Origin: an archaeon
GTDB lineage: Archaea; Iainarchaeota; Iainarchaeia; Iainarchaeales; JAAZKV01
Direction: 5' to 3'
Assembly (NCBI GenBank): GCA_041664905.1
Contig: JBAYJX010000003.1
Span: 537 to 64,536 of the forward strand
Length of the DNA: 64,000 bases
The notes beneath the pieces were generated by a model. It worked only from the letters and a program-made list of their open reading frames with translations. It searched no databases and had not been told where the DNA came from. Shown one piece after another: positions 7,841-64,000 of the stretch (positions are counted from its first letter, which is position 1; every line of letters begins with the position of its first letter). The translations under genes were made by a program, and so were the position numbers.

Positions 7841-8026
7841 TTACTTTTTCTTTTTTGCCTTTTTTTTAGGTTTTGCTTTTTTAATTTTTGCTACTTTTTT
7901 AGCTGGTTTTGCAGCTTGTTTCTTTGTAGGTTTAGCAATAATTCCCGTTTCTTCTTGTTCTTTTTTTAGTTCTTCTCTCATTTGTTCGATTAAGTCTTTT
8001 ACTGACATTTTTTTTTCAAAAACCAT
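7841..8026 (-). CDS. small Lys/Ala/Pro-rich basic protein (H1-like tail)
   Basis: 'AKPTKKQAAKPAKKVAKIKKAKPKKKAKKKK'. A TATA-like tttatatataaaa lies upstream on the minus strand. Confidence 0.4.
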   Translation of the reverse strand: MVFEKKMSVKDLIEQMREELKKEQEETGIIAKPTKKQAAKPAKKVAKIKKAKPKKKAKKKK

Positions 8027-8211
8027 TTTTTAACACCGATTTTGTGCTAGAACATAGGCCTTTTTTATATATAAACTTTCCCTCTAAAAGTTAACTTAAA
8101 CATAATTTTTGTTAAAATTGGGTTTATTTGAAAAATAAGTGGTTTAAAACACTAGTTTATGTATAAGTTTTTTGTTAAAAAAGGTGCTTTTTTCTCTTTT
8201 GTTGACAAAAA

Positions 8212-11845: not shown

Positions 11846-12180
11846 AATTTTCACCTCGTCGTAAAGTGCTTTTTGAGCCTGATTTTTGGCTTTTAATCAA
11901 GTGGCCCGTTGCCTTTTAGACAATTAACTTTCTGTTGCGTTCTTTATAAATGGTTAACCAAGTGTCCTGCCGCCCAAGAATTCCTTTTTAAATTTCAGCG
12001 CAATTAAAAAACATGTCCTATATTTTGTGTAATTAGTATTATTTGTTTATAAATCTATTGAAATATTTTTGTCAGGCGATTTTTTTGTTCACTTTTGATA
12101 GTTATCTTTATTAATCTTTCATGCATCAAGTTGAAAGTAAAAAAAATTATTTCAATTTTTTAGTAAAACTGGTGAGAAAA

Positions 12181-56040: not shown

Positions 56041-56352
56041 TTAAGCGTGTCTGCATTTGCAGTGTTTTTCCGCGTGGTCTTCAAATATTTCAAATAATGT
56101 TTTGTTTTTGTTTGTTGAAAAAATATCTGATTTTAAGTAATAAATGCTTGTTTTTCCTTCTTTTCGGTAGTCAACGAAACTACATTTTCTTAGTTGTGTT
56201 AGGGCGTGACTGACTAAACTTTGTTCTCTTCCTAGTTCTGTGCAAATTTCTTGTACTGTTCTTGGCTTTTCAATTAATAATCCAATTATTTGGCTTCGGA
56301 GTTTGTTTCCTAAGATTTCCATGCATTTGTGTACGCCAGGCTTTTCTTTCAT
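56041..56352 (-). CDS. ArsR-family winged-helix transcription regulator
   Basis: 'LGNKLRSQIIGLL...TVQEICTELGREQSLVSHALTQLRK'. Confidence 0.8.
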   Translation of the reverse strand: MKEKPGVHKCMEILGNKLRSQIIGLLIEKPRTVQEICTELGREQSLVSHALTQLRKCSFVDYRKEGKTSIYYLKSDIFSTNKNKTLFEIFEDHAEKHCKCRHA

Positions 56353-56440: not shown

Positions 56441-56767
56441 TTATTGAGTAGTTCCTTTGTAAGTTATTTTTTTAGTGGTTCCGTCTTCGCCCCACATGTA
56501 TGTCATGTCAACGGGTTTGTCGCGTTCAAGTACTACTTGTTTGTCTCCAGGGTTAGCCATTTTTAATGTGAATAACTTTGAGAACCTTACTACTGCTCGG
56601 TCTCCTGATATTTTCAATAGTTCATAAACAGATTCTTCGTTTCCGTTTCCTCTTATTCTATCAAATTTTTCTCCTTCTTCCACTTCAAAAACTTCATCAG
56701 TAATGTCTTTTTTGAATGGGGGTTTCCAAGAGCTCTTTATTGTTCTAATTTCAAATTTTGCCTTCAT
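56441..56767 (-). CDS. hypothetical protein
   Basis: ORF with AGGTG 7 nt upstream of the ATG at 56767. Confidence 0.4.
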   Translation of the reverse strand: MKAKFEIRTIKSSWKPPFKKDITDEVFEVEEGEKFDRIRGNGNEESVYELLKISGDRAVVRFSKLFTLKMANPGDKQVVLERDKPVDMTYMWGEDGTTKKITYKGTTQ

Positions 56768-56990
56768 AAGTAACACCTGCGCAGGAAATTCTAGTCTTTA
56801 CTTTTGCTGACCTGATTTTAGCCAGTTTTTCCGCACAATTAGATGCCGACTTTCCTTATAAACCTTGCTTTTTTGGCCGTTTTGTAATTAAGTTTTGAAG
56901 TTAGGTGTCTGTCTAAAAGGGGTTTTGGGAGTAAAACATGACTTTGGCAAGTTTAAAAAACAAATTAAGCCTAGTATTTGAGGTAACAAA

Positions 56991-57572
56991 ATGGATGAGC
57001 CGATTAAAAAATTTAAGGCTTGTGTGGTTGAGGCGGCAAGTAACCCTAATTTTATTCACCACAAGTGGTTTGTAAAGTGGCATCTTGAGTTAGTGGATAA
57101 ATTGGCCAGTGAGCTTTGTGATATTTATAAAAGTGCAGATAGAGATTTGGTTGAACTACTAGTCTGGCTTCACGATTATGGGAAAATACTTGATTTTGAT
57201 AAAGAGCATGAAACAACATTGTTAAAAGGAAAACAAAAGTTACTTGAGCTTGGTTTTCCAAAACCAACTATTTTGAAAGCCATTAAATATGTTGAGCTAA
57301 TGGATAAAAAAGATAAACTTGATAAAGCTCCGATTGAAGTCAAAATAGTTTCTTCTGCTGACGGGGCCGCACATTTAATTGGTCCGTTTTTTCCAATTCA
57401 TTGGTATGAAAACCCTAAAACAGGCATTGAGGAACTAATGCAAGGTCACATATCTAAAGCATTAAGTGATTGGAATAAAAAAATTGTTTTGCCCGAAATT
57501 AAAAAAGCGTTTAAAACAAGACACGAGTTTTTGTTAGAAACAAACGGCAAACTTCCTAAACACTTCCTTTAA
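56991..57572 (+). CDS. HD-domain metal-dependent phosphohydrolase
   Basis: 'HHKWFVKWH' ... 'LVWLHDYGK'. Confidence 0.65.
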
Positions 57573-57706
57573 ACAAAATAAGAATTGTTAAATCGTTTTT
57601 GTTATTTTTTAGATAGTTTTCTTGTCCGCAATTATTTGTGTTTTCTGCGGCGGCACTATCCTTGGCTTAGCTTTATATAAGTGGGGAATCTTTTATCTTA
57701 ATTAGT

Positions 57707-58786
57707 ATGTTTAATGATTTTTTAGACAAGGCGGTTTTGGCAGTCAAAACAAGGCAGTCCTATAATGAAAGGCTTGCTAGTTTTCTTGCGCAGTTAAAGA
57801 CTAAACCTTCTCCTAATTTATCAGAACCAGTTGTTTTAAGTGTTGAGAAAACCCCTTTTTCGGGTTCGGTTGCAGGAGTAGATTCAGGTTTTGTTTCAAA
57901 AAAACTTTCTTTTTTAGATTTAGTTTTAGTAAAAACAACTGGAGTTGTGTTCACTTACAAAGAGGGTCAACTGCTTGATGCAAAGTATCACCCAGCTCCT
58001 TTTTCTTTTCCCGAACCGCTTCTTCTTCGTTCGGGTCTTGAGCGGGATGAAGAGGCTCAAAGTGTTTCGCTTATTCGCTTGGAACAAGAAGTTAATTGTG
58101 CGATTGATGTGATAAAAAAGTTTAAACCAAAGTACTTGTTTATTGACGGTTCAATAGTTCCCCAGTATCAGGATAAGCCTAGAAAGGAATCTGAAATAAA
58201 TAATGATTATGAATCTATTGTGAAACTCTTCCAAAAGTTATACAAAGTCGCAGAGGATAATTCTTCTACTCTTGTTGCATGTGTAGAGGATTCTCGCGGT
58301 ACAAGGTTTAGACAAATATTACAGGAAGAAGTTCTTCCAATGAATAAAATAAATTTAGATAAAACTCTTCTTGACGGGGCTTTTGATGCTTCTCTTTTAG
58401 ATTATTATTTGTTGCAAGGCGAAAGAACCTTTGCTTTTTCTTACACTAACTCTGTTTCTGCTCACGCAATTCTAAAGGATTATGATAACGAGTGGGCAAA
58501 AAGTATTTTTGTTTTTTATTTAAAGTGTTCCACTTTTGATAAACCTTTAAGAGTTGAATTTATTTGTAAGGACAAAAAAGATTTGTCAAAGTGTGCTAAA
58601 GAGATTTCAGAAATTGTTTTTTCCTTATCTTCTCTTCATCGAGAGTATTCTTTTCCAAGTATTTTGATTGAAGCTGACTTAAGAGCAGGTTTAAGTGAAC
58701 AAGAGATTTCAGTAGTATACGATAGATTAGTTGATCAATTAGGTGGCAAAGTAAGAATGAGAAGAACAAATAGGCCTTTTAATTAA
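57707..58786 (+). CDS. nurA: NurA 5'-3' nuclease
   Basis: 'VAGVDSGF' and 'YLFIDGSIVPQ' (NurA catalytic Asp motifs). Length and pattern are typical. Confidence 0.75.
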   Translation: MFNDFLDKAVLAVKTRQSYNERLASFLAQLKTKPSPNLSEPVVLSVEKTPFSGSVAGVDSGFVSKKLSFLDLVLVKTTGVVFTYKEGQLLDAKYHPAPFSFPEPLLLRSGLERDEEAQSVSLIRLEQEVNCAIDVIKKFKPKYLFIDGSIVPQYQDKPRKESEINNDYESIVKLFQKLYKVAEDNSSTLVACVEDSRGTRFRQILQEEVLPMNKINLDKTLLDGAFDASLLDYYLLQGERTFAFSYTNSVSAHAILKDYDNEWAKSIFVFYLKCSTFDKPLRVEFICKDKKDLSKCAKEISEIVFSLSSLHREYSFPSILIEADLRAGLSEQEISVVYDRLVDQLGGKVRMRRTNRPFN

Positions 58787-58811
58787 AACTGTGTGTGTTA
58801 TACGTGAAAGC

Positions 58812-59441
58812 ATGAGTGCCGAAGAATATGAAGTTAAACTTTTTGGGCGAACAGATTACGGTTCAGACAACAAAGCAATTTTGCCTAATGATGCTTTGGG
58901 TTTGATTAAGTCCCCTATGTCATTTTTTATGTTTCAAATTTTATCAAAAGGGGATTCTAAGTGTGTTGCACAAATAGAATTTGTATTAAGAAATAATGAA
59001 AAAGAACCTATTTTGAGCGTTTATGGTTCTAGTGAGGAACTGAAAGAATCTCTTACTTTTTTTAGAGTGTATCGTCAAACTCCTTTTAGGCTTCTTCTTT
59101 TTTCTGCACTTACTTTGGCAAGAAAAAAAGGGATTAGAAAGTTTTATTCGGAAGCTGGAATGGTGGACCTTGGCAGGGGGCATGCAGCACAAATGCGTGA
59201 AGGTCTATTTAAGCACATTTCTAAAGGAAAAACCTATGGATGGCATGCACACAAGATTGGAGTTTTCCCACCGTTGTCTCTTTTGGGTTTAACTAGAATG
59301 ATTCAAAAACATGTGCCTGTTCCTACTCGCTTTTTACCCCCTACATCCGTTTTGCGAAAGAAACGGGCGACGAGTTATATTGTACTTAGAAGGAATCGGG
59401 TAAGAAAGAGAATGCCCTTTCGGGGGCTAAGGCGGAAGTGA
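58812..59441 (+). CDS. hypothetical protein P1, possibly a degenerate GNAT-like core, with a conserved basic C-terminal tail
   Basis: 'FFRVYRQTPFRLLLFSALTLARKKGIRKFY' and tail 'PVPTRFLPPTSVLRKKRATSYIVLRRNR'. Paralog of the next gene. Confidence 0.45.
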   Translation: MSAEEYEVKLFGRTDYGSDNKAILPNDALGLIKSPMSFFMFQILSKGDSKCVAQIEFVLRNNEKEPILSVYGSSEELKESLTFFRVYRQTPFRLLLFSALTLARKKGIRKFYSEAGMVDLGRGHAAQMREGLFKHISKGKTYGWHAHKIGVFPPLSLLGLTRMIQKHVPVPTRFLPPTSVLRKKRATSYIVLRRNRVRKRMPFRGLRRK

Positions 59442-59499
59442 GCGGTGAAAATAATATTTTTAAAGCAGGCTTTAATTGAATTTGTTTAAATTGATTTTT

Positions 59500-60120
59500 A
59501 TGGTTAAACCAAAGTATGAGTTAATTATTGATGATGGTAACACGCCTAGGGATAAGAGTGTTTTGTCTGATGAGCGTGAGCTCGAACTAGGTTTGTTTTT
59601 GACTATTCGCGAGACTTCAAATAAAATTAGTGTGGCTAATATTCATTTCTCGATTTCTTGGATTGGCAAAGAACGATTAATGCGAATAACTAGTTCCTCC
59701 CAGAATAAAATGCGCGTACTTGATTTTTTTAGGGTTTTTAGACAGTCGCCTTTTCGTCTTCTTTTGCTTTCCACTTTTTCCATTGCAAAGAAAACTGGGG
59801 CGACTAAGTTTTTTTCTGGTTCGGGTATGGGGGATTTTGGACAGGCGCATCGTAAACAGGAAGCTGAAGGGTTGTTTAAGCACGTTAAATTCGTTGGTCC
59901 CTCAACAGATACTTTTCATGAGTTAGGTGTATTTCCTAGTCTTAGTGTTAGTGAACTAAGTAGTATTCTTAAAAGAGAAAAGCCTGTTCCAAAAAGGCTT
60001 CTTTCGCCGTCTTCGCCTTTAAGAAAAGTTAGGGCTGCAAGTTATGTTAAGCTTAAACTAAATCGGCTTGGTAAAACAAAATACGAAGCATCAAAAAAAT
60101 TGAGGGTTGTTGGTAAATGA
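59500..60120 (+). CDS. hypothetical protein P2 (paralog of P1)
   Basis: 'FFRVFRQSPFRLLLLSTFSIAKKTGATKFF' and tail 'PVPKRLLSPSSPLRKVRAASYVKLKLNR'. Confidence 0.45.
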   Translation: MVKPKYELIIDDGNTPRDKSVLSDERELELGLFLTIRETSNKISVANIHFSISWIGKERLMRITSSSQNKMRVLDFFRVFRQSPFRLLLLSTFSIAKKTGATKFFSGSGMGDFGQAHRKQEAEGLFKHVKFVGPSTDTFHELGVFPSLSVSELSSILKREKPVPKRLLSPSSPLRKVRAASYVKLKLNRLGKTKYEASKKLRVVGK

Positions 60121-60725
60121 TTAAGTGTATTTTTTTTGATTTGGGGGGAGTAGTTCTTCCTACTCCAATTGAAGGGGTTTTAACCGAAATTGCGCGAGAA
60201 CTAAATATTCCAGTTGCATTTTTAAATCAAGTTAGGAACGAAAACAAGGAAGCTCTTTGGGATGGAAAAATGTCAGTTAAAGATATTGTTGTATTAGTTA
60301 AAAAAGAATTTTCTCTTCCAAGTAGTGTTGAAGATATTTTGGGTATTTGGGAGAAAACTTATTTGCGAGTAAATTTGCCCGACCCAAAGGTTATTCTTTT
60401 AATAAAAAATTTAAAGAAAAAGTACAAGGTTGGTTTTATTTCTAATTTGTGGGATTTATCTGCGCAAATTAACCGGAAAAGAAAGTTGTGTGCGGATTTT
60501 GACTTGTGTGTATTTTCTTGCGAACTTGGGATACACAAACCCCAAAAAGAGATTTTTGATTTAGCAATAAAAAAAGCTGGTTGTTTGGGCGAAGAGTGCG
60601 TTTTTATTGATGATAGGAAAGAATATTTCAAAGTTGCTGAGGAAGCTGGTATGAAAACTTTTGAATACAAAGGGTTAGATCAACTTGTTTTGGAACTAAA
60701 AGAGCTTGGGGTTGAAGTTAAATGA
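60117..60725 (+). CDS. HAD-superfamily hydrolase
   Basis: Motif I 'IFFDLGGVV', 'ISNLW', 'FIDDRKEY'. ATGA overlap with P2. Confidence 0.75.
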   Translation: MIKCIFFDLGGVVLPTPIEGVLTEIARELNIPVAFLNQVRNENKEALWDGKMSVKDIVVLVKKEFSLPSSVEDILGIWEKTYLRVNLPDPKVILLIKNLKKKYKVGFISNLWDLSAQINRKRKLCADFDLCVFSCELGIHKPQKEIFDLAIKKAGCLGEECVFIDDRKEYFKVAEEAGMKTFEYKGLDQLVLELKELGVEVK

Positions 60726-61396
60726 TTAAAGCGGTTGTTTTTGATTTGTGGGAAACCTTAATTCCTGCCACTATTGATTTTGTGCATTTGGCATCTCTTT
60801 TGAAAAAAGGGAAAGTTCCAATGCACGATTTTCTTAGGCGTTATGAGCTTGCTGTTCAATTAAAAAAGTACAGGGGCGTTGAAGAGTTAAGAAAAGATTT
60901 TTTTAAAGCATTTGGTGAGGAAAATAAGGAGACTTTGGAAGAAGAATTGTATGAAGTTTTTTTTAACAGGTTCGATAAAATAAGGTATTATCCAGAAGCC
61001 GAAGAAGTGTTAAAGAAACTAAAGTCCGAGGGATATAAGTTAGCCCTTCTTTCAAACACAGAGAGTGTTCACGCCTCAGAAATAGTAAAGAAATTGTCTT
61101 TTGAAAAATATTTTGACGCTTTGTGTTTTAGTTTTGAAATTGGTGCGATAAAGCCTGATGAAAAGGTTTTTAGGTGTGCTTTAAATGAACTTAAAATTAA
61201 ACCAAGTGAGGCCCTAATGGTTGGTAATTCTCTTCGTTCTGATATTGGGGGCGCACAAAAAGTTGGTATGCATACTTGTTGGATAAATAGAAAAGAAAGA
61301 CCAATTGATTCAGTTACCGTAAAGTCCGAGTTTGAGATTTCTTCACTTGACAAGATTTTTTGGGTGCTTGGGGAATTAAACTCAAATCAAAAGTAG
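60722..61396 (+). CDS. HAD-superfamily hydrolase
   Basis: Motif I 'VVFDLWETL', 'LLSNTE', 'VGNSLRSDIGGA'. ATGA overlap with the previous HAD gene. Confidence 0.75.
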   Translation: MIKAVVFDLWETLIPATIDFVHLASLLKKGKVPMHDFLRRYELAVQLKKYRGVEELRKDFFKAFGEENKETLEEELYEVFFNRFDKIRYYPEAEEVLKKLKSEGYKLALLSNTESVHASEIVKKLSFEKYFDALCFSFEIGAIKPDEKVFRCALNELKIKPSEALMVGNSLRSDIGGAQKVGMHTCWINRKERPIDSVTVKSEFEISSLDKIFWVLGELNSNQK

Positions 61397-61414
61397 ATTT
61401 TGTATTATATTTAG

Positions 61415-62182
61415 GTGTTTTTTGTGGTGCGGGTTGTTCGTCATGTTCCTATTAAGAAAAAATTATCGCTTCGCGAAATGAGAGGGCAAACTTTTGCTGT
61501 GCGATCAGTTAGTTCTGTTTTTGTTCATCCGCGCAAGGTTATGGGTGCACGTTTTACTAAAGTAAATTCGGGAAAAGAAGCGGTTCTTTATAAGGATAAA
61601 AAAACAAAACACATTTTCAAGTTTTGGAGACAAGATTGGATTCTCTCAACTTACAAAATGTATTTGAATGGCACTCCTGTGCATAGGCGTGCTGCAATTA
61701 GAGCGGCACGTAGATTTGATTTGAGGGATCATCAGATTTTTCAGACCACTGAATCAAAGGAAATTCCTCATCACGGTATTCCTCTTAATCAGTTCGCCCA
61801 GATTACTTTTGTGTTATCTGGGATGACCGAGGATGTTTTGTCTCGTGCAAAAAAACTTGGGATTCCTTGTCCGTCTTATGCTAAAATGGTGCATCACCCG
61901 ACTAAGGAGATGTTTGTTGTTGAGTTAAGTGATTTATCAAAACCAGGGTGTATAATTGTTTCTGCTAATGAGATAACTTCTTTGGAAATAAAAAAAGGAA
62001 TAAAGAATTTTGATGAAATAATTGAGGGGATTGAATCTGATAAAAAACTTTTAGCTTCAATTGGATTAAAGTCGGATGAATCTCAGCACCCTCCTCTTTC
62101 GGGCTGGCTTGTTAGGATAAATAAAAAAACAGGGGTTGCTAAAAGGTTTCTTTGGGATGTAACAAATCTTTCATATGCCTGA
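61415..62182 (+). CDS. hypothetical basic protein (start uncertain: GTG at 61415 or 61424, or ATG at 61478)
   Basis: ORF with no recognised motif. 'GKEAVLYKDKKTKHIFKF' and 'WLVRINKKTGVAKRFLWDV'. Confidence 0.4.
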   Translation: MFFVVRVVRHVPIKKKLSLREMRGQTFAVRSVSSVFVHPRKVMGARFTKVNSGKEAVLYKDKKTKHIFKFWRQDWILSTYKMYLNGTPVHRRAAIRAARRFDLRDHQIFQTTESKEIPHHGIPLNQFAQITFVLSGMTEDVLSRAKKLGIPCPSYAKMVHHPTKEMFVVELSDLSKPGCIIVSANEITSLEIKKGIKNFDEIIEGIESDKKLLASIGLKSDESQHPPLSGWLVRINKKTGVAKRFLWDVTNLSYA

Positions 62183-62240
62183 ATATTGTCGGCAAATCAC
62201 TGGCAGTTGATTTAAAAATAACTTCTTCTTTTCTTTTGTT

Positions 62241-63770
62241 ATGCGTGAACAATTAGGCACTGTTGTTTCAACTATGGAGGGGCCTTCTCCGAGTACTGTT
62301 GATTTTGTTGTTAATAACGGTAAAGTTCACAAAGGGTGTTTTGTAGAGTTAGATTATTCCGAGGGCACAATGATGCTTTTAGTTGAGGATGTAATTAAAA
62401 CAAATAGATATTTTGAGAGGCCTGATTCAGTTAAAGCAATTGGAGAGGAGCTTGAGAAAAACTTTCCTGCCGCGGAGTGGGAGTTTTTAATTGCAAAAGC
62501 AAAGCCTTTGGGAGTTTTTACAGAAATTAATATTCAAAGAGCAACTTTCCCACCTTCCCCTGGAGTGAAAGTATTTAATGCTGATAATGAAAGGATAAAG
62601 AAATTTTTGGCTCTTCAAGAAGATGGTTTGAATTTAGGAAAACTCCAGTTTCATGATGTTGAATTAAAAGTAAATCTTTCAAAACTACTTCAAAAACACT
62701 TAGCAATAGTTGCCACAAGTGGTGCTGGAAAGTCTTATTTTGTATCTGTTTTGCTTGAAGAACTCTTAATGCGTAAAAAAGAACAGGGTCAAATTGGAGT
62801 AGTAGTAATGGATACTCATGGAGAGTATACTTGTTTTGGCGAACCGGTAAAGCAATCAAATCAAAATCAGTTCATGGATTTTTCTTCTAAAACAAAAATT
62901 ATTGATGGAACCAAAATAAAGATTGCGTGTAGCAAGGTTTCAGTTAGCATGTTTTCTTCAATTGTAGAACTTTCGCCTAATCAAAAGAGAGCCTTAGCAA
63001 GAATTCTTTCTAAATTAAATGATGAAATGAAGTCAGGTGCGGGTCCGTTTGATTTGAATGCAGTTAAATCAGAAATAGAGAATATTGATAATGAAAAAAC
63101 TCGAGCTTCACTATATGGGGTAATTTCAGAAATTGAAGACATTGGTTTGTTTGGAAAAATTGATGAACCAAGCGTAGTTGATTTTGTTAAGCCTGGGCAA
63201 ATGGTTGTAATTGATTTGAACTTAGTTATTTCAGAGAAAAAGAAACAAATTTTGGTAGCATATCTTTCAAATAAATTGTTTAACGAAAGAAGATCTCACT
63301 CAAAAAAGATTCCTCCGTTTGCATTGTTTGTTGAGGAAGCGCATAATTTTATTCCTGAAGGAACTGCAATAGAGCACGCTGTTGCAAGGAGTTCGCTAAG
63401 AACAATTGCAAGGGAAGGCAGAAAATTTGGGGCTTCATTAGTAGTAATTTCTCAAAGACCAAAGAGGCTTGATACAACTACTCTTGCTAATTGTAACACA
63501 AATATTATTCTTCGAATAACTAATCCCTATGACTTGGACCACATTTCTCAGTCCTGTGAAGGTTTGGATAAGTCAAGTATTGGAATAATTTCTTCTTTAA
63601 GAGTTGGAGAAGCGCTTGTAGTTGGTGAAGCTGCTAATGCGCCAACTTTTTTTAAAGTTAGATTAAGAAAGTCCCAGCCAAGCAGACATGAAACTAATTT
63701 AGAGGATGCTGCGCGTGCCTTTCAATCTGACACAGATAAAAAAAGTGAAGAAGTAAATTCGTTTTTGTGA
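62241..63770 (+). CDS. herA: HerA hexameric DNA helicase/translocase ATPase
   Basis: N-terminal HAS barrel. Walker A 'VATSGAGKS', Walker B 'ALFVEEAHNFIP', and 'REGRKFGASLVVISQRP'. Confidence 0.85.
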   Translation: MREQLGTVVSTMEGPSPSTVDFVVNNGKVHKGCFVELDYSEGTMMLLVEDVIKTNRYFERPDSVKAIGEELEKNFPAAEWEFLIAKAKPLGVFTEINIQRATFPPSPGVKVFNADNERIKKFLALQEDGLNLGKLQFHDVELKVNLSKLLQKHLAIVATSGAGKSYFVSVLLEELLMRKKEQGQIGVVVMDTHGEYTCFGEPVKQSNQNQFMDFSSKTKIIDGTKIKIACSKVSVSMFSSIVELSPNQKRALARILSKLNDEMKSGAGPFDLNAVKSEIENIDNEKTRASLYGVISEIEDIGLFGKIDEPSVVDFVKPGQMVVIDLNLVISEKKKQILVAYLSNKLFNERRSHSKKIPPFALFVEEAHNFIPEGTAIEHAVARSSLRTIAREGRKFGASLVVISQRPKRLDTTTLANCNTNIILRITNPYDLDHISQSCEGLDKSSIGIISSLRVGEALVVGEAANAPTFFKVRLRKSQPSRHETNLEDAARAFQSDTDKKSEEVNSFL

Positions 63771-63846
63771 ATCCCTCCCTTGATTTTTCTTATGGCCGGC
63801 ATGGCACTTCCCAAGTCTTTATAAATAAAAAAAATGGCTTTGTGTC

Positions 63847-64000
63847 ATGTTCCCAAACACAGATGCAGTTCTCGCTAGCGAAGAGCTAAAGAATTCAATT
63901 CCCCGAGTAAAAGAATTTTTTTACTTGACTAAGGTTTCTTACAACGAACCAAAGTCAGAAATGTTAGTCGAGTTTTCAAACCCAAATGAGCGAATTATTC
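63847..64000 (+). CDS. hypothetical protein, 5' fragment (runs off the window)
   Basis: Open frame from the ATG at 63847 to the window end. Confidence 0.3.
   Translation, partial: MFPNTDAVLASEELKNSIPRVKEFFYLTKVSYNEPKSEMLVEFSNPNERII

Follow-up and report, generated by a model that had tools for sequence, protein, structure and literature searches.

In thermophilic archaea such as Sulfolobus, Pyrococcus and Thermococcus, the genes for the ATPase HerA and the nuclease NurA are found in a herA-mre11-rad50-nurA operon (PMC3326311, PMC4351679, PMC12977600), and in the model archaea where this has been tested NurA-HerA is essential (PMC4351679). Other described loci that may be compared are the nurA-herA pair of Deinococcus radiodurans (PMC9960219, PMC4663267) and the systems which place a HerA-family ATPase gene near that of a nuclease or effector, namely Sir2-HerA (PMC11514289) and DUF4297-HerA (PMC11291478). 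The locus studied here lies at the end of a 64,000-nucleotide stretch of DNA from an archaeon of the Iainarchaeota (assembly GCA_041664905.1, contig JBAYJX010000003.1, positions 537 to 64,536), the whole of which is referred to as the window, and differs from these in that nurA and herA bracket five other genes. The window is part of contig C3 of a 1.29-Mb, 84%-complete genome and includes an archaeal signal recognition particle RNA.

The locus is identified as the chromosomal site at which a small DPANN-type archaeon encodes its housekeeping pair for DNA-end resection, NurA-HerA. The explanation that we favour, and to which we give a somewhat better than even chance, is that the spacer between the two genes has turned into a permissive slot in which accessory genes have been gathered in layers of different age. 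The original prediction for this DNA described nurA and herA as separated by five closely spaced genes that run in one direction, and all eight open reading frames (ORFs) concerned are present on the plus strand, followed by the start of a ninth gene (lengths in amino acids, aa):

56991-57572, plus strand: HD-domain phosphohydrolase, 193 aa (PF01966, E 6.8e-6)
57707-58786, plus strand: nurA, 359 aa (PF09376, E 9.6e-8)
58812-59441, plus strand: P1, 209 aa, from the ATG of the public gene call; the longest ORF starts at GTG 58791
59500-60120, plus strand: P2, 206 aa, a paralog of P1; the longest ORF starts at TTG 59476
60117-60725, plus strand: HAD1, a HAD-IA protein (PF00702, E 1.8e-10)
60722-61396, plus strand: HAD2, a HAD-IA protein (PF00702, E 1.6e-25)
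61415-62182, plus strand: basic 255-aa protein ("orphan"), GTG start with AGGTG 8 nucleotides (nt) 5' of the GTG
62241-63770, plus strand: herA, 509 aa (DUF87, E 2.5e-29)
63847-64000, plus strand: 5' end of a 551-aa gene, the rest of which is on contig C54 (positions 1-1521)

Pfam agrees with the identities proposed for the HD gene, nurA, the two HAD genes and herA, and the proposed paralogy of P1 and P2 is borne out by 44% identity over 149 residues (E 4e-40). The ATGA overlaps are likewise present, at 60117-60120 between P2 and HAD1 and at 60722-60725 between HAD1 and HAD2. The 4-nt distance given between the nurA stop and P1 holds for the longest ORF, from GTG 58791, and becomes 25 nt when the public start, ATG 58812, is used. 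P1, P2 and the 255-aa protein are all basic (pI 10.6, 10.4 and 10.1 respectively), and GC content is even across the region and not atypical.

Gene order was tabulated in the nurA-herA loci of more than 50 relatives and each insert was located separately; the counts reported here are based on draft genomes, several of which are broken within the locus. This comparison, which had been suggested as a check on whether the five genes co-occur as a cassette, gave a negative answer: their distributions differ completely across relatives, and for this reason a single co-inherited cassette was rejected. The earlier proposal that accessory genes were recruited to the resection module survives for HAD2 (33 of 35 family genomes keeping the locus) and for the P family (placed behind nurA), neither of which is a chance single insertion there, and fails for the five genes as a unit. 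Adjacency of nurA and herA in relatives and separate promoters had been named as evidence against recruitment, and both are found in part: in many genomes of other families the two genes are adjacent or separated by different inserts (they lie 9-55 nt apart in G049, G055, G056 and G060, G numbers denoting genomes, which belong to other families of the order) and some homologs of the 255-aa gene are located elsewhere, while herA has its own predicted and conserved promoter.

The two bracketing genes are vertically inherited housekeeping core genes. NurA is found in 58 of the 61 sampled relatives at 38-77% identity, HerA in 58 of the 61 at 48-87%, and NurA in 180 of the 201 genomes of a sample of the phylum; nurA is single-copy in this genome, and the order nurA then herA, on one strand, is invariant among relatives. 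The PF09376 match of NurA spans residues 54-324 and is above cut-off, and the acidic motifs GVDSGF, IRLEQE, FIDGS and VEDSRG (RNase-H-like) can be read in the sequence, with zero matches to NCBIfam models. HerA has the Walker A motif TSGAGKS and a Walker B region reading FVEEAHNF, and its top NCBIfam models are those of double-strand break (DSB)-repair HerA, at 158 and 152 bits against cut-offs of 800-970. Two side observations concern these genes in relatives. In G010 (C14:4379-7714), G047 (C27:6027-9419) and G044 (C6:89087-91168) the herA frames are of 793-1146 aa and the HerA match is in two pieces, which resembles an intein insertion near residue 165-170, past the Walker A region; in G016 nurA (L075 274-1411; L numbers denote loci and contigs of relatives and metagenomes) is found in two ORFs of 134 and 234 aa in different frames, owing to a frameshift or an assembly error.

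It had also been stated that neither mre11 nor rad50 is nearby. The Mre11 candidate is found on another contig, and the statement does not hold for rad50. The latter seemed absent because contig C3 ends just after herA, 3 nt past the window and about 230 nt past herA. C3 and contig C54 overlap by 22 identical nt, the end of the former being the start of the latter, so that the 551-aa gene is obtained by joining the C3 ORF from 63847 with its C54 part, and after it, on the opposite strand of C54, follow a Nudix gene, a 120-aa gene and rad50 (682 aa, with SMC_N, AAA_23 and a zinc hook), which is convergent and has its 3' end about 3.2 kb from the herA stop. This layout (herA, a gene of about 540 aa, convergent rad50) recurs in G011, L046, L051 and G051, and the 551-aa gene follows herA in every relative examined (L047 included), with no significant match in Pfam and in PDB sequence and profile searches. 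The Mre11 candidate (404 aa, C1:49224-50438, minus strand; with NF041031 as its best model, at E 1.4e-23 and below cut-off) has no linkage to nurA, herA or rad50, and the ORFs of 577 and 378 aa beside it are, from their size and order, candidates for topoisomerase VI B and A. In this genome a convergent rad50 lies near nurA-herA and the Mre11 candidate lies on C1, and the genes do not share an operon. As a caution on method, the apparent lack of a nearby rad50 was a contig-end artefact.

These findings bear on the suggestion that the pair belongs to a different system, such as one acting against phages or plasmids, in which a HerA-type ATPase and a nuclease would be joined by the five genes as sensors or effectors. 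HerA-effector systems of this kind exist (PMC11514289, PMC11291478), and HerA of the window matches the PADLOC HerA models (E 5e-53) as well as the anti-phage HerA models of NCBIfam, the latter at 128 and 115 bits, below cut-off. However, these matches are generic and are outscored by those to the DSB-repair HerA models; moreover, no neighbouring gene matches a PADLOC model (E <=0.001) or a phage family, nurA and herA belong to the near-universal core, in single copy and with identities that fall off much as the phylogeny would predict, rad50 lies about 3.2 kb away, the promoter box described below is common to radA and recJ, and the GC content is not atypical. A defence system was therefore rejected and is, in our judgement, hardly credible.

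HAD2 holds its position widely. Of the 35 genomes of the family in which the locus is retained, 33 have an ortholog (38-65% identity) in the nurA-herA interval, and a further genome (G030) is without the whole locus. HAD2-like genes (29-36% identity) also occur behind nurA in six genomes of family f2 (G037, G066, G072, G134, G176 and G177) and in G042 and G047, with motif I being FDLWGT or FDLWDT where read (G037, G047, G042), and in G052 a canonical DxD HAD is found behind nurA. The distance from nurA to HAD2 (8-118 nt) is mostly below that from HAD2 to herA (20-317 nt). Because HAD2 has been fixed for so long and in so many lineages, it is probably tied to NurA in function.

Judged from its sequence, HAD2 is a hydrolase of the capped HAD-IA type whose motif I, D-x-W, is atypical. 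Motif I is FDLWET in this genome and F-D-[LFM]-W-x-T across 24 aligned orthologs, with Trp at the position two residues after the nucleophile Asp (Asp+2) in 24 of 24, while motifs II (Ser/Thr) and III (Lys) are conserved. PF00702 and PF13419 are above cut-off for both HAD1 and HAD2, and the nearest solved structure to HAD2 is PH1655 (2hoq), aligned over the full length, cap included (E 7e-21). Its NCBIfam matches (TIGR02253 at 127 bits, type II dehalogenase at 107 bits, YjjG-type nucleotidase at 90 bits) are all below cut-off, as are those to HAD-IIIA models (TIGR01662 at 41.9 bits with a cut-off of 44.6, YqeG at 56 with a cut-off of 89).

A phosphatase-fold gene fixed between the genes of a nuclease and a motor invites another explanation, namely that HAD2 and HAD1 clean DNA ends by stripping 3'-phosphates or similar blocks, as does the phosphatase domain of polynucleotide kinase-phosphatase. 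The HAD and DSP/PTP superfamilies both include polynucleotide-end phosphatases, and each of the two kinds is found in the slot of some family. Yet the best HAD2 matches are to capped HAD-IA small-molecule enzymes, those to the HAD-IIIA class, to which the polynucleotide 3'-phosphatases belong, being lower and below cut-off, and Asp+2 is absent from both HADs. DNA-end cleaning by the locus is on these grounds very unlikely, and for HAD2 itself a role as DNA-end cleaner is unlikely; a phosphatase like that of polynucleotide kinase-phosphatase was disfavoured by the full-length match to capped PH1655 together with the HAD-IIIA scores. Since HAD2 appears to be a capped HAD-IA enzyme, a small molecule is the more likely substrate, and our best guess is that it would hydrolyse small phosphorylated resection products, e.g., the nucleotides freed by the nuclease, which would fit the MazG, Nudix and HD genes found in or around the locus in other members.

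P1 and P2 may be described as a new, rare and basic family with a predicted GNAT fold, positionally tied to nurA. Among the 61 genomes the family was found in three, with two copies here, three in tandem in G011 and a remnant in G008, and in all three the P run starts directly after nurA. The first copy of G011 is split into ORFs of 88 and 159 aa (L012 9481-10145, minus strand), and what is left of the one copy in G008 amounts to 89 aa and is interrupted by a TAG stop in frame (L013/L026, about 7892-8173). A metagenome scan added six further contigs, including L046 with the order nurA-P-HAD2-herA, L047 with P-P-HAD2-herA, L045 and L050 with tandem copies, and L049 with a P copy followed by unrelated genes. 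Wherever a contig includes the upstream flank, the run of one to three copies lies directly behind nurA. The family is very rare: a profile search yielded 15 matches among 1.84 billion representative proteins, a word-based search with P1 matched P1 itself alone, and a scan of reference genomes found one other genome. No match to P1, P2 or the 255-aa protein was obtained in Pfam, NCBIfam, PADLOC or PHROGs.

The fold was approached through an AlphaFold2 model of P1 built on an 11-sequence alignment (predicted local distance difference test, pLDDT, 80.6; predicted template-modelling score, pTM, 0.79). In a Foldseek search against the PDB all of its top matches were GNAT proteins (E 3e-5, probability 1.0, template-modelling (TM) score 0.35-0.43), and GNAT acetyltransferases came on top against a viral library as well. 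The order of strands and helices in the model fits the GNAT core, with an extra helix past beta4 and a basic C-terminal extension. The conserved basic C-tails that had been noted in P1 and P2 are a property of the P family as a whole, as an extension of about 50 residues in which R-x-x-R-x-x-S is invariant.

These features could indicate a module for post-translational control, in which P1/P2, the 255-aa protein as a kinase-like enzyme and the HADs would write and erase acetyl or phosphate marks on NurA, HerA or chromatin proteins and so gate resection. The best fold matches of P1 are enzymes that acetylate proteins (KKT23, Gcn5, NatD and a mycobacterial lysine acetyltransferase), the tail motif is invariant, the slot is occupied in G046 by a canonical GNAT and in G051 by a protein phosphatase of the DSP type, and the 255-aa protein weakly resembles small protein kinases. 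Nevertheless, the genes are not found together (P occurs without the 255-aa gene in G011, L046 and L047, and most genomes have HAD2 only), capped HAD-IA enzymes usually act on small molecules, P1/P2 lack an acetyl-CoA glycine loop and a GNAT profile match, and the kinase-like model has a pLDDT of 60 and a best E value of 7e-3, with sequence searches unsupportive. We consider such a module unlikely.

The kinase resemblance comes from the AlphaFold2 model of the 255-aa protein (pLDDT 60, about 80 for the C-terminal half), for which the best Foldseek matches are the PRPK/Bud32, HopBF1 and CtkA kinases (best E 7e-3, TM 0.37-0.46, with a low-confidence model); kinase profile searches and PDB profile and sequence searches gave no significant match. 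The protein may have a protein-kinase-like fold, which is put forward as a low-confidence lead. It had been called a basic orphan; it is basic, and it is not a true orphan, having four metagenome homologs (48-66% identity): one, in L051, is directly before herA, one adjoins an aminoacyl-tRNA synthetase gene and one follows a Nudix gene, the contexts in L052 and L053 being unrelated. Weaker homologs (35-39%) occur outside the nurA-herA slot in G051 and G045, which belong to other families. The gene looks like a recent, sporadic and mobile add-on.

HAD1, whose motif I is FDLGGV (the nucleophile Asp being present and Asp+2 absent), has weak matches to a TIGR02247-like model (epoxide-hydrolase-N-terminal-like, 71 bits) and a glucose-1-phosphatase-like model, both below cut-off. 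Orthologs (52-57%) are found at the equivalent position in G002, G013 and G015, and a second HAD1 type (32-33%) in G004 and G019, bringing HAD1 to six of the 22 genomes of the genus, this one included; G002 also has a HAD1-like stretch with stops. Both HAD1 and the 255-aa gene are probably recent passengers.

Across relatives the interval between nurA and herA is filled in many ways. A zinc-ribbon protein of about 70 aa is found in it in at least 8 genomes, and most of the other families, with the DSP-PTPase, GNAT, MazG or PIN inserts listed next, also have such a protein beside herA. Other occupants are a DSP-PTPase in G051 (E 1e-10, L054 1583-2122), with a weak match in G044; a canonical GNAT in G046 (E 1.3e-12, L073 1134-1616); a MazG pyrophosphatase in G045 (E 1.8e-17, L072 1701-2024); a PIN toxin preceded by a small partner in G037 (L057 1687-2307); an HGSNAT-type membrane protein in G006, G007 and G028 (E 9e-53); and, in G013, G016 and G020, uncharacterised proteins about 290 aa long. 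The slot thus repeatedly holds phosphohydrolases and proteins of acyltransferase fold, alongside plainly unrelated passengers. A stronger reading would be that the phylum has a dedicated, undescribed NurA-HerA accessory layer, which includes the D-x-W HAD fixed behind nurA and the rare GNAT-fold family confined to that place, with analogous enzymes in other families (the DSP phosphatase, the canonical GNAT, MazG). These would process resection nucleotides or modify NurA, HerA or chromatin to gate resection, and the box described below would wire the whole set to radA and recJ; this we hold to be doubtful.

How such a slot may have arisen is suggested by the promoters, which are predicted on the plus strand as follows:

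57648-57657 and 57672-57679, plus strand: predicted nurA promoter, with variant box CGGCGGCACT and TATA box TTTATATA, the TATA box 35 nt before the ATG
62190-62201 and 62211-62218, plus strand: predicted herA promoter, with box CGGCAAATCACT and TATA box TTTAAAAA, the TATA box 30 nt before the ATG
63797-63808 and 63818-63825, plus strand: box and TATA box of the predicted promoter of the 551-aa gene

The herA box is located 9 nt 5' of its TATA box, and no Shine-Dalgarno sequence is found upstream of the herA start. Box and TATA box of herA are kept in genus relatives irrespective of which gene lies upstream, and because herA has this conserved promoter of its own, the whole nurA-herA stretch is probably not one operon; in another genus of the family GGTGA stands before herA, which there appears to be translationally coupled. 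The box, CGGCA-N3-YACY at 9-10 nt 5' of a TATA box, is found at herA, the 551-aa gene, radA, the archaeal recJ (identified at E 2e-81) and a TIGR03916 DNA-repair radical-SAM gene, and relatives' nurA promoters have CGGCA-N3-YRCY at the same distance of 9-10 nt. Its sites include that of radA in the window (about 11930-11975, minus strand) and, beyond the window, C2:53883(-) and C5:35750(+), while mre11 and rad50 of this genome have no box. The pattern CGGC[AG]-N2-4-YACY-N4-18-TATA has 10 matches in the genome versus 0-4 in 20 mononucleotide shuffles. We regard the box as a candidate DNA-repair regulon element shared by radA, recJ, herA, the radical-SAM gene, the 551-aa gene and relatives' nurA.

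From the gene identities, distributions, synteny, fold predictions and promoter motifs described above we infer transcript structure and biochemical roles as follows. nurA and herA would each be transcribed from a TATA promoter of their own, and the shared box would keep them co-regulated without fusion in one transcript. A gene landing between the nurA stop and the herA promoter would then be expressed from the nurA promoter and leave herA unharmed. Insertion of new genes behind nurA is thus presumably tolerated because herA does not depend on the nurA promoter; the layout of two promoters and a shared box would in this way make the slot tolerant of insertions. The first layer would be HAD2, established behind nurA across the family and also in another one; the second HAD1, added as a second HAD within the genus; the third the tandem copies of the very rare P1/P2 family, starting behind nurA, which may be acyltransferase-like factors directed at NurA or at chromatin; and the fourth the 255-aa basic protein, recent and mobile.

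The main rival to this layered reading treats all five genes as passengers, even HAD2: no functional link to NurA-HerA would exist for any of them, the spacer being a safe and well-expressed landing site of a compact genome in which HAD2 persists by inertia. The contents of the slot are indeed very heterogeneous, with a membrane acyltransferase and a PIN toxin-antitoxin (VapBC) pair among them, herA is preceded by a promoter of its own, G029 and G035 have lost HAD2 with nurA-herA retained, decayed copies are seen (the P remnant of G008, the split P of G011, the HAD1-like stretch with stops in G002), and motif IV of HAD2 has Asn for Asp in this genome. Against such pure hitch-hiking speak a HAD2 position held in 33 of 35 genomes that span about 50-77% NurA identity, D-x-W HADs at the equivalent position in other families, a P family whose runs, in several genomes and contigs independent of one another, have been seen to begin behind nurA only, and the recurrence of similar enzymes (phosphatases, GNAT, nucleotide pyrophosphatase) in the slots of unrelated families. 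We consider it possible and short of probable.

Several observations weigh against the layered explanation. The mix of a toxin-antitoxin pair and a membrane protein in the slot is equally explained by pure hitch-hiking, and HAD2 is dispensable, since G029 and G035 have lost it yet keep nurA-herA. HAD2 retains the nucleophile Asp and is without the Asp+2 general acid/base expected of phosphomonoesterases, and its motif IV, which is GDSLRSD in most orthologs (GDS or GDT throughout), here reads MVGNSLRSD (61222-61242), so that the first metal-binding Asp, present in all 23 other aligned orthologs, is replaced by Asn. Because of these two departures HAD2 of this genome may be weakly active or inactive, and with the extra HAD1 copy present it could be losing its activity here. 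Every named match of either HAD falls short of its curated cut-off. As for P1/P2, the GNAT assignment is based on a predicted structure with moderate TM scores; the family has no GNAT profile match in Pfam or NCBIfam, hhalign of the family against the canonical GNAT of G046 gave a probability of 0.1, and the site of the acetyl-CoA loop is R-Q-[ST]-P-F-R in nearly all members, with no glycine. Finally, the nurA box of the window is a shortened variant located 14 nt from the TATA box, versus the 9-10 nt seen elsewhere, and the transcription units are deduced from sequence motifs only.

Two neighbouring genes lie outside the slot. The HD phosphohydrolase gene, which the original prediction placed just upstream of nurA, is present there and does not belong to the module: its stop is followed by T5/T6 runs, nurA has a separate TATA box, and tblastn found zero homologs in the nurA loci of more than 50 relatives. 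It was rejected as a member on these grounds and looks like a separate transcription unit. On the minus strand, at 56441-56776, is a gene for a 111-aa protein beginning MKAKFE(I/V)RTIKSSWKPPFKK with no family match, which is divergent from nurA in nearly all family genomes examined; ArsR, a DSP-like gene, nifS and iscU come after it. The ArsR-type gene of the window (56041-56352), also divergent, is a candidate for a regulator that acts at the box.

The regulation of NurA-HerA and the fate of its products are poorly known, and HAD2 and the P family offer concrete candidates for its partners or regulators. These candidates come from uncultured, genome-reduced archaea that are probably dependent on salvage. 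The box, in turn, gives a directly testable prediction, that of a small regulon for DNA repair. No paper was found in the literature that joins NurA, HerA and "haloacid dehalogenase", or that describes a HAD or GNAT gene between nurA and herA.

When the inserted proteins are compared with characterised ones, HAD2 shares with PH1655 of Pyrococcus horikoshii, TIGR02253 and YjjG the nucleophile Asp, the motif II Ser/Thr, the motif III Lys and the cap domain. It differs in having D-x-W-x-T where PH1655 has FDLDDT (D-x-D-x-T), in the Asn that in this genome replaces the motif IV Asp, and in its fixed position behind nurA, which is undescribed. The predicted beta-alpha core topology of P1 resembles that of GNAT proteins including KKT23 (9evq), the Gcn5 HAT module (9ynv), NatD (4u9w) and the mycobacterial lysine acetyltransferase (4ava), whereas P1/P2 are without the R/Q-x-x-G-x-G/A pyrophosphate loop and have an extra helix and a basic tail of about 50 residues.

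At the level of the locus, Sir2-HerA (PMC11514289) and DUF4297-HerA (PMC11291478) are similar in that the gene of a HerA-family ATPase is located near that of a nuclease or effector, and in the matches to PADLOC HerA profiles. Here, in contrast, Sir2, DUF4297 and other defence effectors are absent and HerA is partnered by a bona fide NurA-domain protein, and the distribution is that of core genes, not of a sporadic island, with a box common to recombination genes. Deinococcus radiodurans (PMC9960219, PMC4663267) likewise has a two-gene module without adjacent mre11 and rad50; its nurA and herA are, however, adjacent and uninterrupted, no HAD or GNAT-like insert being described in the papers found. 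With the operon of thermophilic archaea the locus shares a NurA-domain nuclease and a HerA (DUF87) encoded by close, single-copy core genes on one strand, with rad50 nearby and with an Mre11 candidate and radA in the same genome. It differs from that operon in that its HerA reaches 158 bits against an NCBIfam equivalog cut-off of 800 and its NurA matches no NCBIfam model, and, above all in layout, in that nurA precedes herA, mre11 is unlinked, rad50 is convergent and 3.2 kb off, five genes stand between the partners and herA has a predicted promoter of its own.

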